IMG/VR virus record: IMGVR_UViG_2721755658_000005
Span: 1-46,563 of that record
DNA length: 46,563 bases
Strand: one strand, 5' to 3'
From: a virus
Taxonomy: Duplodnaviria; Heunggongvirae; Uroviricota; Caudoviricetes
This document shows positions 30,978 through 36,467 of the stretch, in pieces; the stretch's first letter is position 1; each line of letters starts with the position of its first letter. The notes below the pieces were generated by a model. The model was given only the letters and a program-made list of their open reading frames with translations. It made no database searches and was not told the DNA's origin. A program made the position numbers and the translations under genes.

Positions 30978-31349
30978 TTACCTGTTTTGAAGAATCTCCC
31001 GCTTTCTTACAATACATTCCGTCGTTTCTCTATAGCTGCACACGTGCTCCCGTGAACATTGGTATGTGTGCAATTCGCCGATGGCATCACCGATACCAGT
31101 CAGCACATCTTTTTCATGCAGAATGGTCACCTGCAGACGGTTGGTTGGGCAGATAATGTTTGAATAGTTCATTTTGGTGTCTCCTTTGCTTTCGAGACAC
31201 CAAAATCCCATCACGACACGTTTACCGCCACAAACATTATTGCAGGCACCCATTGAATACCTGCGGGACTGATAAACACAGCCTCCTCCATACGTAGTGA
31301 AACCATTTTCATATCTCCAGTAATGAATTCTTTGAAGAGTCGCAATCAA
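30978..31349 (-). CDS. Hypothetical Cys-rich protein (uncertain; non-ATG start)
   Basis: Tracked ORF begins at a TTG; internal Met alternatives exist; no recognisable family. Confidence 0.25.
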   Translation of the reverse strand: MIATLQRIHYWRYENGFTTYGGGCVYQSRRYSMGACNNVCGGKRVVMGFWCLESKGDTKMNYSNIICPTNRLQVTILHEKDVLTGIGDAIGELHTYQCSREHVCSYRETTECIVRKREILQNR

Positions 31350-31370
31350 TACGACTCACTAATGGGGAGG
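31348..31370 (+). promoter_or_regulatory. T7-type phage RNA polymerase promoter-like motif
   Basis: aatacgactcactaatggggagg against T7 consensus taatacgactcactatagggaga; 14 contiguous matches across -16 to -3, GGG at +1 to +3. Confidence 0.5.
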
Positions 31371-31403
31371 CATGTCCAACGCGTTGGACGAGTTGCCTAC
31401 TTG

Positions 31404-31425
31404 ATTTAGGTGACACTTTAGAAGG
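31404..31425 (+). promoter_or_regulatory. SP6-type phage RNA polymerase promoter-like motif
   Basis: atttaggtgacactttagaagg against SP6 consensus atttaggtgacactatagaag; one mismatch. Confidence 0.5.
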
Positions 31426-31472
31426 ACAGAATGCCTTCCTCACTCAAATAACATCAATTAAGGAGGTTCAAC

Positions 31473-31595
31473 ATGCTTCGTTCCAAAAATCAGTTGACTG
31501 TAATTATTACTACGTCACCTTATGCCGAAGACCTTTTCCGCTTCACTTTGAGCCTGATTCACTTCTACCTGACCGGCTCGCCTCTATCCTTCTGA
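31473..31595 (+). CDS. 40-codon ORF with strong RBS downstream of the tandem phage-type promoter motifs
   Basis: aaggagg 6 nt upstream of ATG; translation MLRSKNQLTVIITTSPYAEDLFRFTLSLIHFYLTGSPLSF; antisense to the Rz1 3' end. Confidence 0.3.
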   Translation: MLRSKNQLTVIITTSPYAEDLFRFTLSLIHFYLTGSPLSF

Positions 31596-32095: not shown

Positions 32096-32555
32096 TTACC
32101 ACCCCACCAGCCTCTTTAAACCGGGAAATCAGGTCACCGATTTTATGTTCATACTGACCGTAACCTGCACCAGGTAACGACGCCCAGATATTGCTGCAAC
32201 GATCGATAGCCTGACGGATATCACCGCGATCAATCATCGGTAAAGCGCCACGCTCTTTAATCTGCTGCAATGCCACTGCGTCCTGGCTTTTGGGGGAGAA
32301 GTCTTTCAAACCAAGCTGTTTACGGTAAGCATCCCACCAGCGTGAAAGAAGCTGATAACGTCCGGCGGCTGTTGATTTGAGTTTGGGGTTTAACGTGACA
32401 AGTTTGCGAGGGTGATCAGAGTAATCAGTAAACAGTTCGCCGCCAACAATAACATCATAACCGTGATTACGTGTCGGTTGTCGCCCGTTATCCGTTCCTT
32501 CTGACCATGCCACCATATCGAGGAAAGCTTTACGCTGGGAATTTAGTACCTGCAT
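32079..32555 (-). CDS. R: Endolysin (lambda R-like lytic transglycosylase)
   Basis: NQRKAFLDMVAWSEGTDNGRQPTRNHGYDVIVGGELFTDYSDHP closely matches lambda R as recalled. Confidence 0.9.
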   Translation of the reverse strand: MQVLNSQRKAFLDMVAWSEGTDNGRQPTRNHGYDVIVGGELFTDYSDHPRKLVTLNPKLKSTAAGRYQLLSRWWDAYRKQLGLKDFSPKSQDAVALQQIKERGALPMIDRGDIRQAIDRCSNIWASLPGAGYGQYEHKIGDLISRFKEAGGVVNEVEL

Positions 32556-32558
32556 AAA

Positions 32559-32885
32559 TTACTCCTTAGAGCCACCAAACTTATTACCGATTACTCTCAT
32601 TGCAGCCCCACGAATAGCATCAACACCGATCAGCCCCACCCCACCACCAATGGCAACAGATAGTGATTTAGGCCATCCGACATACTCAAGAGCGGATGCA
32701 AAAGTCAGCGTCAGAGCGCCACAGAGTAGAATTTCGAGTGTTTTTCGCTTCCAGCCGCCACCACCGCCAAAATAGGCAATACGTAAACCAGCCATAACAA
32801 TCGACATAATCACTGCGCCCAGCGGTGTGTCTCCACGCCACCAGCTCTGGACCAACTCCAGCCAGGTATTTGGGTTATGAGGCAT
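32559..32885 (-). CDS. Holin
   Basis: 108-aa product with two or three TM segments, immediately upstream of the endolysin gene. Confidence 0.7.
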   Translation of the reverse strand: MPHNPNTWLELVQSWWRGDTPLGAVIMSIVMAGLRIAYFGGGGGWKRKTLEILLCGALTLTFASALEYVGWPKSLSVAIGGGVGLIGVDAIRGAAMRVIGNKFGGSKE

Positions 32886-33036
32886 TTGTAGTTATCTCTC
32901 ACCTCGCTGATACAGCAGGTGCAAATTGAGGGAACATCATGTACAGCAAATTAGAAGCGGAAACGTCAAAGAAGCCGAACCAATGGATAACTGCGGAATA
33001 GACCAGGACCAACGAATCCCCATCCCCAGAAACGAC

Positions 33037-33059
33037 AAAACCCGCTCGACGGCGGGTTT
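33037..33059 (-). terminator. Candidate late-operon terminator (tR'-like) upstream of the lysis cassette
   Basis: Minus-strand hairpin aacccgc...gcgggtt followed by uuuugucguuucug; lies between Q and the holin gene. Confidence 0.45.
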
Positions 33060-33231
33060 AAGCTGTGTGGCGAAGTAACCACTCTTAACACAGTAATCTA
33101 GAAAATGCGGACCGCGTTAGTGATTTTTATCTGTTTTTCCATTATTTTTTTGCCACACAGCTTAAAACGAAAAATAAAGCAGGCGTTGCCAAACCTCACG
33201 GTGACAGTTGGCTTAGAATGAGGACATATTT

Positions 33232-34251
33232 TTGGATAAGTTTGATGAGATTCATGTAGACATTGAATCTGAGCAGCAAGCCTTCGATTTGCTTGAAAGC
33301 TATCTTGATGGTTATGGTTTACCTGACAGTTTAAGTTTCAACGGATGGCCAAACCTTACCATCAGATTAACCGGTGAAAAATTCAACAGATCGCTAACAC
33401 CTTCAGTTATGAAGGGATTTGTTGAAATGCAAGCTCAAATCAACAAATCATATGCCCTTGCCAAGTACGGTGTCCCTGACGTCCGCAAACTGACCAAAGA
33501 AGAACTTGATGCCCTAGAAATAGAAGTTACGGTAGAACAGGGTTCTTCAATAGTAGAAATCAACATTGATGGCTTTTTAACCAAACTCACACAGGAACTT
33601 GTTGGTAAAATGAACGCAACTGAGATCATGTTTACTGTTCTCGGCGCAGCAGTCATCTGGGGCGGAGTAACAGTATTTAAACGGTTCTTGGACAACCGTA
33701 AAGATATTCGCCTTGCAGAAATTGCTAAGGATGGAGAGAAAGAACATCTCCGGACTATGCAGATCATGAGCGAGCAAGAAACTAAACGCCTGCGGGTTAT
33801 TTCAGAAATGATTGCGGAAAAACCACTTCTCGATAACATGGACCGTATGTCGTATGACGCTAAAACCCAAATGGTCAAATCCTTTGTGCGTTCAGATAAC
33901 GCTCAAATTGATGGCGTTACTATTGATTCTGAAATGGCGAAAGAGTTGGTTACGAATGCTCGTAGACGTTCATCAGAAATGAGGATTGATGGTATTTACC
34001 GAATTGAAGAAGTCAATAATACTGACCCAGAGAGTTTCAAAGTTAAGGTCCGACGCGTAGATACCGACCAACGTCTAACCTGCGTAGTTCAGGATGTTTT
34101 CCTTGATGAATCCGGAAACAAAGAAGCATTGCAGCGAGCTGAGTGGGAAAGAAAGCCTGTACATTTGAGCATTAACGCAAAACACGTCGATGGTGACATT
34201 AAGTCAGCAGTAATTCTCTATGTTCGAGATGTGGAACAAAAGCCCGAGTAA
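33232..34251 (+). CDS. Hypothetical single-pass membrane protein (moron between Q and lysis genes)
   Basis: 339-aa ORF with TTG start; central TM helix IMFTVLGAAVIWGGVTVF; opposite strand to the late operon; no recognised family. Confidence 0.5.
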   Translation: MDKFDEIHVDIESEQQAFDLLESYLDGYGLPDSLSFNGWPNLTIRLTGEKFNRSLTPSVMKGFVEMQAQINKSYALAKYGVPDVRKLTKEELDALEIEVTVEQGSSIVEINIDGFLTKLTQELVGKMNATEIMFTVLGAAVIWGGVTVFKRFLDNRKDIRLAEIAKDGEKEHLRTMQIMSEQETKRLRVISEMIAEKPLLDNMDRMSYDAKTQMVKSFVRSDNAQIDGVTIDSEMAKELVTNARRRSSEMRIDGIYRIEEVNNTDPESFKVKVRRVDTDQRLTCVVQDVFLDESGNKEALQRAEWERKPVHLSINAKHVDGDIKSAVILYVRDVEQKPE

Positions 34252-34265
34252 TCGGGCTTCAATAA

Positions 34266-34658
34266 TCAATCTTTAATTTCGGGGTCCATCTCTAGACTAA
34301 TTTCCAGCATCGATAGGCAGCCATCAATAAACCCCTCAGCCATCTGTATCTCAATGCGTATTAGTTTCTCATCCTTTTTACGAGCCTTGGCGAGCTTTCT
34401 TTTAGAGATACCGTATAGGTAATGGGCAACAAGAAGCGAATGTTCGTCCGGCCTTTTTTGCCTTAGACGAGCAAGACAACCTTCAATAATTAATGCATCA
34501 CTATCTGAACATGCCTGACGTGTTTTGCTTGTATAGGGAAGAAGCCCTTTAAACCCAGCAGCTATAGGAGAATAGTCTACTCCTGAACTATCACTCGCCG
34601 CCCATGCTCCCCAACGATCCAGAACCATTTGAATATCACGCATCAACTTTCTCCACAA
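34266..34658 (-). CDS. Late antiterminator Q-like protein
   Basis: 130-aa product containing YLYGISKRKLA; position immediately before the late/lysis region. Confidence 0.6.
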   Translation of the reverse strand: MWRKLMRDIQMVLDRWGAWAASDSSGVDYSPIAAGFKGLLPYTSKTRQACSDSDALIIEGCLARLRQKRPDEHSLLVAHYLYGISKRKLAKARKKDEKLIRIEIQMAEGFIDGCLSMLEISLEMDPEIKD

Positions 34659-34660
34659 AA

Positions 34661-35656
34661 TCAGGCCAGCACGCCAATTGCCAGCGCACGATCGATAAAA
34701 CGAAATATCAGCTCCAACTGAGAGCCATACTTTTCTTCAAATACCACGGTATCCGCATGCAGCTCGTCGTGATGCTTTCTGCACAAAGGCAGCACGAAGA
34801 GGTCATGCGCTTTTGTACCCATTCCACCCTGACCGTGGCCTATCAGGTGGTGGGGATCATCTGCAGGCTTTCCACAACATGCACACGGCTGCGTCTTAAC
34901 CCAGCGCGTGTACTTTTCGTTAACCCAGCGGCGACGTTTGGGACGTAACATAAAAGACTCCGGCGACTCCGGATCCACTTTCAGCGCCAGCACCTTTTTC
35001 GCTTTATCCTGGATGATGCTGGTGGCAGGAACCGAAGGCACAAGGTCACTTTCCCGGGTGACAGACGGCACAACAGGCTTCGGTAATCTCAGTGCCTTAC
35101 GGGCTGCGCTTTCCGGTAAGGCATCCGCCAGGTCATTACGAACCAGCCACCAGCACAGTTCCGGCATTGTCACAACGTGACTGTCATCAAAACCGAGATC
35201 CCGACGCACGAGAGACAACACCCAGCGGGCACAGTTATCCGTTGCCATTGATTCCAGCCGTTCCGTGAATTGATCGCGCAGCTGGTTATCGCAGTGCCAG
35301 CACAGACGGATTGCGCCCGGCGCGTGTCGCATTGTTGTCATGTTCTCGCTGTGCCAGTCGGAATGAGGCCACTGGCAGCCTTTTTCACGAAGTAACCAGC
35401 TTTCAAGACATTCCACGCCACCAGCACGACGGATCACTGCCTCATTGCGGAACACGGCCCGAACGGCAGGATCATCCGCCAGCGGTTGTGATGCCGCCGG
35501 AACGGCACCACTGGCAAAAGATGAATAACGTTCCGGCTCAGGCTCCAGCAGGACACGCCCCTGCATAAACAGGGGCATCAGCTCTGAACCTGGTCTGAAC
35601 AATACGATCCCCATACGCGGGGCAATTTCAGGGGTCAGTAGTGCTCTCACGGTCAC
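34661..35656 (-). CDS. DUF968-type phage protein with C-terminal HNH-like Cys/His motif
   Basis: C-terminal CACCGKPADDPHHL...CRKHHDELH; common in lambdoid nin regions. Confidence 0.55.
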   Translation of the reverse strand: MTVRALLTPEIAPRMGIVLFRPGSELMPLFMQGRVLLEPEPERYSSFASGAVPAASQPLADDPAVRAVFRNEAVIRRAGGVECLESWLLREKGCQWPHSDWHSENMTTMRHAPGAIRLCWHCDNQLRDQFTERLESMATDNCARWVLSLVRRDLGFDDSHVVTMPELCWWLVRNDLADALPESAARKALRLPKPVVPSVTRESDLVPSVPATSIIQDKAKKVLALKVDPESPESFMLRPKRRRWVNEKYTRWVKTQPCACCGKPADDPHHLIGHGQGGMGTKAHDLFVLPLCRKHHDELHADTVVFEEKYGSQLELIFRFIDRALAIGVLA

Positions 35657-35657
35657 C

Positions 35658-36467
35658 TCAATGAACGGTATCGAGCAGCTTTAACAGCTCAGGGAATCGG
35701 GATTCGAAAAAGTGCGGCTGCGTCTCGCGCGGATTTGCGGGACTGGTGATGTTCTTGCCGAACATGCAGCCTTTCGCTGTCAGCGACCAGAATTTTTTGA
35801 TGTTGTTAATCGCGGTACGGCTGTATCGTTCGCGCTGCTCGACGATCCCCAGCTTCACCATCTGGTGATATGCCTGATTAGCCGTCAGGCGGATACCATA
35901 CTGCTTCAGCAGTGCACTCAGTGACAGTGTCGGGCGACTTGAGCCATCGTGTGCATCAGCAGGGGCATCAATGGCATAGCGCGGTGCCAGATTCGGTAAG
36001 CCAACAGCCTCCTGGAGTTTCTGACAGGCACCAAGCACTGATGAGTTAGACAGGTTTAATTCCCGGCGCATAAAGTCCAGCAGGATCACGCCAGCCTGCA
36101 TCTTGTCAGCAGCCTGCCCGGATAATTTTTCGGGTGCGCTGGTTACCATATCGAAAGTACGGATCACCTTCAGATGGAATGCCGGGCTGATCCACATTGC
36201 ATAGGCATACACCAGTTCTTTGCAGACATACGTCCCCTGGTTATTTCCGCCATTAATAACGCTAACTGGTTGATTCTTTTCCAGAGGCGGAATTCCACCC
36301 TCGGTGAAAAGTTGTTCAATCAGTTCACAGGTTTGCTTATTGGAGAGCCAGTATTTCGGGCGGTTTTTTTGTTCTCCCCCGGCAGCCCGATGCAGATCGT
36401 TCAGGCTGTAACGACCATAAGCATCACGACGAACTTCAATACCATCAATGACCATCAGATTATTCAT
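35658..36467 (-). CDS. KilA-N domain protein / antirepressor-like
   Basis: N-terminal IDGIEVRRDAYGRYSLNDLHRAAGG...KYWLSNKQT fits the KilA-N pattern. Confidence 0.6.
   Translation of the reverse strand: MNNLMVIDGIEVRRDAYGRYSLNDLHRAAGGEQKNRPKYWLSNKQTCELIEQLFTEGGIPPLEKNQPVSVINGGNNQGTYVCKELVYAYAMWISPAFHLKVIRTFDMVTSAPEKLSGQAADKMQAGVILLDFMRRELNLSNSSVLGACQKLQEAVGLPNLAPRYAIDAPADAHDGSSRPTLSLSALLKQYGIRLTANQAYHQMVKLGIVEQRERYSRTAINNIKKFWSLTAKGCMFGKNITSPANPRETQPHFFESRFPELLKLLDTVH

Follow-up and report, generated by a model that had tools for sequence, protein, structure and literature searches.

The window examined here, a stretch of 46,563 nucleotides, is the IMG/VR virus record IMGVR_UViG_2721755658_000005 of a member of the Caudoviricetes and represents an SfII/SfIV-like prophage. 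Between its antiterminator gene Q and its lysis genes, on the opposite strand, lies a gene encoding a protein of 339 amino acids (aa), which is discussed here as a candidate for prophage-encoded defence against other phages. The coding sequence and the features belonging to it are as follows:

33232–34251, plus strand: coding sequence of 339 aa with TTG start and TAA stop; identical to WP_000357056.1; family phrog_6191
33220–33224, plus strand: Shine-Dalgarno sequence GAGGA, 7 nt 5' of the TTG
33619–33678, plus strand: hydrophobic segment of aa 130–149, EIMFTVLGAAVIWGGVTVF, the predicted single transmembrane helix
33679–33951, plus strand: helical stalk of aa 150–240 (helices 146–163, 167–174, 181–196 and 198–218 in the structural model)

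The gene, its start codon and its family

The preliminary description of this DNA, made from the sequence alone, had proposed an open reading frame (ORF) of 339 aa with a TTG start, and this gene call is borne out by the ribosome-binding site, by the PGAP annotation and by the full length of the family. An in-frame stop codon lies upstream at position 33214, and TTG 33232 is the sole start candidate preceding the conserved N-terminus. The next candidates, at codons 20 and 60, fall within sequence that is conserved among the homologues, so that TTG 33232 is the only workable start. Both GAGG and TTG are kept across 20 aligned loci of the Q context. PGAP calls an identical coding sequence (WP_000357056.1, 'hypothetical protein') in E. 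coli APEC O78, the DNA of which is 100 % identical to the window over positions 33100–34300. The gene was found at an identity of at least 99 % in 85 of 5426 complete E. coli genomes, always in single copy and always on the chromosome.

TTG starts approximately 3 % of E. coli genes. Among 63 distinct loci carrying the gene or a homologue, 47 have TTG as their first in-frame start candidate, 8 have GTG and 8 have ATG (TTG or GTG in 55 of the 63), and the TTG start persists from E. coli to Salmonella (63 % identity) and on to Moraxella (33 %). The conserved TTG/GTG start is read as a probable sign that a low dosage of the protein has been selected for. Such a start would suit a product whose excess is harmful, without deciding the mechanism.

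The protein matches phrog_6191 ('unknown function') from end to end (E 1.6e-152, residues 3–337 on profile positions 2–337 of 338). A word-seeded search returned approximately 100 clusters at 90 % identity, all of them about 335 aa long, full-length and annotated as 'hypothetical', with hosts among the Enterobacterales, Pseudomonas, Acinetobacter and the Burkholderiales. Searches of phage genomes with tblastn revealed that Moraxella and Pasteurella phages also carry homologues, and a genome scan using an alignment of the closer homologues yielded 8 loci. An exhaustive profile search gave 1524 full-length representatives at 50 % identity, 592 of them at E values up to 1e-30, and again of uniform length. 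The hosts of the phrog_6191 family are gut, clinical and environmental Gammaproteobacteria (Halomonas/Vreelandella, Acinetobacter, Pseudomonas, Moraxella) together with Burkholderiales. In profile searches of a database of 5.8 billion proteins, all matches were a 'hypothetical protein' without a Pfam domain.

The protein had been described as unrecognised, with remote homology searches recommended as a check. Scans of the 339-aa protein and 45 diverse relatives against Pfam, NCBIfam and PADLOC gave nothing above threshold, and in the remote-homology searches phrog_6191 alone was matched, and no characterised family. In this sense the label stands; it no longer holds in another, since the protein is already listed by DefensePredictor (2026) as a predicted defence gene. 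The matches below threshold were rejected one after the other. NCBIfam gave two short matches to the 339-aa protein, both far under the cut-off. The match to tip attachment protein J FNIII-A (PF24801), at 18.6 bits versus a gathering threshold of 27 (E 0.0022), is ascribed to chance; no stretch passes alone, and one of 45 family members matches. Matches to MetS and DUF7947 were weak and sporadic and were set aside, and a profile search of PDB sequences gave chance matches only (HEXIM1, E 0.08). A Foldseek search of BFVD with the structural model gave three weak full-length matches (TM-score ~0.27), one of which is a DUF6575 protein. A defence protein containing DUF6575 is mentioned by Vassallo et al. 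(2022), the supplement of which does not name the system. Kinship with it was rejected at a TM-score of 0.27 and with no hidden Markov model or Pfam match. Tab (83 aa), HepS (HEPN) and SNIPE are unrelated to the 339-aa protein. An Rfam scan of positions 32500–34800 gave zero matches.

Strong homology to a structural or lysis accessory protein had been named beforehand as the outcome that would speak against an unrecognised cargo gene, and none was found in Pfam or PHROG; among the holin, antiholin and spanin families, too, the 339-aa protein has no Pfam or PHROG lysis match. A function as lysis protein was rejected on the missing lysis-family match, the opposite strand and the position of the homologues far from lysis genes in other phages.

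Gene neighbourhoods, late-control region and expression

The neighbouring genes and features of the window are:

34661–36467, minus strand: genes for a DUF968/HNH-like protein (331 aa) and a KilA-N protein (269 aa), upstream of Q
34266–34658, minus strand: antiterminator Q (PF06530, E 2e-52), convergent with the ORF
34240–34259, both strands: hairpin AAGCCCGA-GTAA-TCGGGCTT, the loop of which contains the stop codon of the ORF, at the junction of the two convergent genes
33066–33092 and 33102–33128, minus strand: conserved non-coding blocks TGTGGCGAAGTAACCACTCTTAACAC and AAAATGCGGACCGCGTTAGTGATTTTT (spelled as on the plus strand), the putative late promoter/Q-utilisation region
33038–33059, minus strand: tR'-like intrinsic terminator, upstream of the holin gene
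32559–32885, minus strand: holin S (PF05106), the first late gene, divergent from the ORF

The lysozyme and Rz genes follow beyond holin S, and Q, holin S, lysozyme and Rz all lie on the minus strand, in agreement with the position between Q and the lysis genes originally reported. The GC content is 40–43 % over the 339-aa gene and Q versus 52–58 % in the flanks. The DUF968 and KilA-N genes have the higher GC content of the backbone, Q and the 339-aa gene both being low. This shared low GC content, set against the backbone GC of DUF968 and KilA-N, suggests that Q and the 339-aa gene may have moved together as one module. Q and the ORF are inherited together at loci of E. coli, Klebsiella, Enterobacter, Serratia and Rahnella.

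The DNA of SfII and SfIV is 92–99 % identical on the holin side up to positions 33091 and 33128, respectively, and then continues with unrelated plus-strand genes. In SfII the slot is taken by SfII_50 (locus L018, 1772–2794; 340 aa; phrog_9879; PADLOC candidate PDC-M53A at 2e-32), in SfIV by SfIV_49 (locus L019, 1848–2918; phrog_3482, function unknown), and in a lambda-like phage the same opposite-strand slot harbours an OmpD/NmpC-type porin gene (locus L020, 1651–2460). This slot gives the impression of a hotspot for genes expressed in the lysogen.

Approximately 105 homologue-carrying loci were collected and their neighbours classed. Homologues that are at least 69 % identical mostly have a PF06530 Q or DUF968 neighbour just downstream on the opposite strand, as in the window. 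Those of 44–68 % identity mostly lie directly behind a cI-type repressor gene on the same strand, the gaps overall being 25–160 bp:

Salmonella: Gifsy-type repressor upstream, same strand, gap 138–148 bp
Klebsiella and others: S24 repressor upstream, same strand, gap 61–112 bp
Morganella: repressor upstream, same strand, gap 75–102 bp
Pseudomonas: repressor upstream, same strand, gap 30–47 bp; Pseudomonas and others together, 30–61 bp
Moraxella Mcat17: upstream protein confirmed as Peptidase_S24, same strand, gap 32 bp
E. coli phage phi458: annotated CI upstream, same strand, gap 25 bp

In a P. aeruginosa clade the homologue is found between tail genes I and J. In another clade, loci L094–L101, it lies just upstream of the tape-measure gene, and elsewhere it occupies a Mu-like late region, where a Mu-type virion-morphogenesis gene precedes it. 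Further homologues have Fic, DNA methylase, endonuclease I, ORF6N and HsdR-N genes as neighbours. Most homologues are solo genes, and no partner is kept across lineages. The Acinetobacter loci are the sole lineage with a possible partner, a 100-aa phrog_15679 protein (unknown function) the gene of which always precedes the homologue (L011 5550–5852, L012 148–450); a protein of 111–132 aa follows it. In one P. aeruginosa prophage a DarT-Macro (DarTG) toxin-antitoxin pair was observed ~6 kb downstream of the homologue, past the tail genes (L003 15237–16969).

Presence or absence between similar phages and deviant base composition, two marks of a moron, are both found, and the insertion contexts number at least five. 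The 339-aa gene is accessory cargo and not a core phage gene, and it behaves as a 'moron'. The earlier view of the gene as cargo is supported by its low GC content, by the exchange of the slot among SfII, SfIV and the porin-carrying phage, and by several accessory contexts in unrelated phages.

A control region of 346 bp separates holin S from the ORF start. The stem of the tR'-like terminator shows compensatory variation in the 20 aligned loci, and both non-coding blocks are conserved more strongly than the coding sequence. An 18-nt inverted repeat (33057–33074 and 33149–33166; 94 % complementary, 74 nt apart) brackets both blocks and is partly conserved in related loci; it may form an RNA stem or a protein binding site. 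SfII, SfIV and lambda-like phages without the 339-aa gene likewise have the terminator and the first block upstream of the holin. Since these elements travel with the holin side, we infer that the blocks and the terminator would represent the late promoter, the Q-utilisation site and tR'. The late promoter would almost certainly be located downstream of the ORF start as read on the minus strand, and the 339-aa gene has in effect, it appears, been inserted between Q and the target of Q. The gene had been thought to run against late transcription. However, the gene diverges from the late operon, converges with Q only and is not antisense to late transcription, because the module of late promoter and terminator is located between the holin and the start of the ORF.

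At the convergent junction the stop codons of Q and the ORF are 14 bp apart, with the hairpin between them (dG −13.6 kcal/mol on the plus and −13.8 kcal/mol on the minus strand; z −4.6 and −3.7). It has a U-tract (UUUUGUU) on the minus strand only. The hairpin is likely a terminator for Q read-through and a weaker one for the ORF, and it would block read-through of the early operon antisense into the 339-aa gene.

Neither a convincing −35/−10 promoter for the gene nor the exact pR' start was found by a consensus scan and the 20-locus alignment. Expression in the lysogen is nevertheless strongly suggested by gene order in the family: homologues lie 25–160 bp behind a cI-type repressor and on its strand, the position of rexAB. 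Where the gap is 25–32 bp, this points to co-transcription with the repressor in those phages. The likely lysogen expression put forward in the preliminary description is thus retained on the strength of the cI-adjacent homologues, and not on the argument from late transcription with which it was proposed.

Attention had also been drawn to a pair of promoter-like sites upstream of the gene:

31347–31364, plus strand: T7-like site CAATACGACTCACTAATG, then GGGGAGG; 3 mismatches
31404–31421, plus strand: SP6-like site ATTTAGGTGACACTTTAG, then AAGGA; 1 mismatch, near-perfect

The sites are 57 nt apart and lie 1.8 kb upstream of the gene, and none was expected by chance (100 shuffles). The pair is followed by a perfect AAGGAGG ribosome-binding site and an ORF of 40 aa (31473–31595, plus strand). 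Pair, ribosome-binding site and 40-aa ORF (31347–31595) are antisense to the end of Rz/Rz1, and could form a cassette that an invading T7- or SP6-like phage would switch on through its RNA polymerase. It is very improbable that such invading polymerases would fire the pair (31347–31421) and read 1.8 kb along the plus strand into the 339-aa gene. Both sites are far beyond chance and on the strand of the gene, and the hairpin at 33038–33059 has no U-tract on the plus strand. However, none of the ~105 other homologue-carrying loci collected, L037 with the same holin among them, has the core motifs; of 5426 E. coli genomes, 625 contain the promoter region (mostly at 80–90 % identity), as does phage SfIV, versus 85 E. 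coli genomes for the gene; and the 40-aa ORF directly behind the pair, with its perfect ribosome-binding site, is the more obvious target. The pair is real and on the same strand, as had been reported, but its link to the gene is treated as coincidental and the pair as a separate curiosity.

Predicted membrane topology and function

The recommended structure prediction, an AlphaFold2 model from a 33-sequence alignment (pLDDT 83, pTM 0.67), shows a membrane-type helix, a helical stalk and a C-terminal OB-fold. The central transmembrane helix proposed in the preliminary description corresponds to the hydrophobic helix of aa 130–149, which is real, conserved in character and as apolar as the helices of holin and Rz. 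Its 19-residue Kyte-Doolittle mean is 1.77, and its additive Hessa dG is 2.7; scored alike, the helices of holin and Rz have 2.6 and 1.4, respectively, and the soluble proteins 6–15. The helix is rich in small residues (glycine and alanine). In 45 diverse members of the family its position and hydrophobicity are kept and its sequence is not; all 45 have 19–21 consecutive apolar residues with charged residues on either side. With a span of ~20 residues, conserved in character and flanked by charges, the protein is predicted to insert as a bitopic inner-membrane protein. A K/R-rich juxtamembrane motif, KRFLDNRKDIRLAEI, directly follows the hydrophobic segment. On average, K and R together number 1.9 before the helix versus 4.0 after it, the count after the helix being the higher one in 82 % of the 45 diverse members. 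Under the positive-inside rule this bias predicts an N-out/C-in topology, in which the acidic N-terminal domain would be periplasmic and the stalk and OB-fold cytoplasmic. The 339-aa protein has neither a signal peptide nor a lipobox.

The C-terminal domain of the model is a five-stranded barrel with a helix between strands 3 and 4, as in an OB-fold. Its structural matches include SSB, PriB, RecO and RPA; the top matches are periplasmic or toxin B-subunit folds as often as DNA binders, and the net charge of the domain is approximately zero.

It is judged slightly more probable than not that the product, an inner-membrane protein of low copy number expressed from the prophage, shields the lysogen against other phages. 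This defence reading is put forward because of the position in cI operons, the hopping between slots, the cases in tail operons, the weak start, the membrane helix and a machine-learning score. The gene would be an accessory cassette of temperate phages that is transcribed by the prophage during lysogeny, the conserved TTG/GTG start would keep the product scarce, and the single-pass inner-membrane protein would defend the lysogen against superinfecting phages at the inner membrane. The score derives from DefensePredictor, in Table S10 of which WP_000357056.1 is listed as a 'Predicted novel defense gene' and as representative of an 'uncharacterized cluster', with a mean log-odds of 6.55 (range 4.5–9.7, cut-off 4) and without HHblits or Foldseek link to known defence (Science 2026; PMC13092281). 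In that study 94 units were tested and 42 validated (45 %); WP_000357056.1 was not among them, and conserved peptides of the family are absent from its table of validated sequences (PMC13092281). Text searches with the accession and the PHROG number found nothing in main texts. The defence idea is already published as a prediction, without analysis.

The slightly favoured mechanism, offered tentatively, is action at or just after genome entry. The protein may sit where phage DNA and the tape-measure complex cross the membrane, and its cytoplasmic stalk and OB-fold may bind the incoming DNA or injection proteins, so that the infection would be stopped without killing the cell, following the logic of SNIPE minus the nuclease. 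A Rex-type abortive infection, in which the small-residue-rich helix would oligomerise on a phage cue and collapse the membrane potential, is more doubtful. It is conceivable, although we hold it with reserve, that the family represents a new class of non-enzymatic, single-gene prophage immunity, portable across temperate phages of Gammaproteobacteria. In such a class a low-copy bitopic protein with a novel periplasmic domain and a cytoplasmic stalk/OB-fold would intercept the injection machinery or DNA or, alternatively, would convert the encounter with a superinfecting phage into membrane collapse.

Several observations weigh against the defence reading. PADLOC-DB v2.0.0, which includes the PD-T4, PD-T7 and PD-lambda systems, gave 0 families at E values up to 1, no catalytic motif was seen in the 339-aa protein, and no hypervariable 'sensor' region is obvious across the family. 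The DefensePredictor score lies near the low end of its range. The slot upstream of the holin carries non-defence cargo too, as the porin gene demonstrates, and no clear sigma-70 promoter was found in the ~100 bp of the cassette that precede the start, so that autonomous expression in this Q-side context is at most presumed. As for the topology, N-out would require export of a 125-residue domain without a signal peptide, an uncommon arrangement; modelled in isolation, the N-domain has a pLDDT of 72 and comes out worse than within the full-length model; and the hydrophobic helix, with a pLDDT of ~90 in that model, could pack in a soluble assembly.

A rival view is that the protein is not integral to the membrane, its helix being buried in a soluble oligomer or inserted only on activation. 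It might then be a cytoplasmic, nucleic-acid-binding abortive-infection or exclusion factor with an OB-fold, like BstA, the gene of which also lies behind cI. This view, which is partly orthogonal to the others, is unlikely. The confidence of the helix in the full-length model, the better modelling of the N-domain in that context, the missing signal peptide, the OB-fold matches to SSB, PriB, RecO and RPA and the borderline dG of 2.7 speak for it. Against it stand a charge-flanked run of 19–21 apolar residues at the same position in 45 of 45 members, with hydrophobicity kept as the sequence varies, a dG that matches those of bona fide holin and Rz membrane helices, the near-zero net charge of the OB domain, and top matches of that domain to periplasmic or toxin B-subunit folds no less than to DNA binders.

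Other rivals accept the membrane location and assign another role. The product could be a lysogenic-conversion factor with no part in phage defence, altering the physiology of the envelope or the fitness of the host (stress tolerance, colonisation) in the manner of bor, lom and the prophage porins, which are found in comparable slots. We regard this as rather unlikely. The OmpD/NmpC-type porin gene in the same slot of a lambda-like phage, the Iss/Bor and TonB-like genes nearby in the APEC O78 prophage and the absence of a known defence domain from the protein are in its favour, but a host range spanning gut, clinical and environmental bacteria argues against a function tied to animal hosts, the protein lacks signal peptide and lipobox, recurrence behind cI and in tail operons is typical of exclusion genes, and DefensePredictor calls the protein defensive. 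It is improbable that the protein serves the life cycle of the phage itself by modulating, from the membrane, the lysis-lysogeny switch, Q-dependent late transcription or the timing of lysis. Such a role would explain the adjacency to cI or to Q and holin, as two recurrent contexts adjoin these regulators, cI and Q, and the 346-bp divergent control region with its blocks and inverted repeat is common to the gene and the late operon. However, the gene is dispensable, since the otherwise similar SfII and SfIV lack it; homologues are also found in tail operons and beside methylase, Fic and endonuclease genes; the gene is on the strand opposite to the lysis genes; and it matches no holin, antiholin or spanin family.

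Prophage accessory genes are a main reservoir of undiscovered phage-resistance mechanisms. The present family is large, uniform in architecture and without likeness to characterised proteins, and it occupies the classic exclusion slots (cI, Q and tail operons) of phages that infect clinically relevant E. coli, Salmonella, Klebsiella, Pseudomonas, Acinetobacter and Moraxella. If it is defensive, it would add a non-enzymatic, membrane-based mechanism and would affect the host range of phage therapy in lysogens; if it is not, it is still a widespread lysogenic-conversion membrane protein. The TTG/GTG start and the separation of Q from its target promoter are useful experimental handles.

Comparison with known systems

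In NfeD-type proteins (PF01957), as in the model of the 339-aa protein, a membrane helix is followed by a cytoplasmic C-terminal OB-fold barrel. However, PF01957 is not matched, no SPFH partner gene lies near the 339-aa gene, and the protein adds an N-terminal domain and a long helical stalk.

By gene position, many homologues, which lie immediately downstream of the repressor on the same strand, resemble the genes co-transcribed with cI, namely rexA-rexB of lambda, BstA of BTP1 and RemAIN of Gifsy-1. Like rexAB-type genes they are dispensable and prophage-borne, and they have a membrane component, as RexB does. They differ in that there is no sequence or profile similarity. The 339-aa gene codes for one protein in place of a two- or three-gene system, and in the window it sits at Q and not at cI. 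Furthermore, RexB has four membrane helices versus one in the 339-aa protein, and BstA is a soluble KilA-N protein. Cumby and colleagues reportedly described gp15 of HK97 in 2012 as an inner-membrane moron in the HK97 tail-gene region. The clade located just upstream of the tape-measure gene and the one inserted between the tail genes I and J resemble the exclusion morons gp15, cor and llp in gene position, and gp15, Cor and Llp are much smaller. The RemAIN defence system is located in Gifsy-1's immunity region, and comparable variable regions house defence systems (PMC13043305, PMC9879122).

SNIPE is a membrane-anchored single-gene defence that acts at the injection site, and its N-out/C-in topology has been shown (PMC13190303). 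SNIPE/PD-lambda-1 and the 339-aa gene are both single, borne on mobile elements and coding for a single-pass inner-membrane protein, although for the 339-aa protein N-out/C-in is only predicted. Both proteins have an elongated cytoplasmic part, which is nucleic-acid-binding in SNIPE and carries an OB-fold here. SNIPE differs by its DUF4041 and its GIY-YIG nuclease, neither of which is matched in the 339-aa protein by Pfam or PADLOC, nor is a catalytic motif seen there. Its membrane helix is N-terminal versus central (aa 130–149) in the 339-aa protein, which adds a large conserved N-terminal domain. The 339-aa protein is a new architectural variant among prophage accessory and exclusion genes and stands outside every characterised family.

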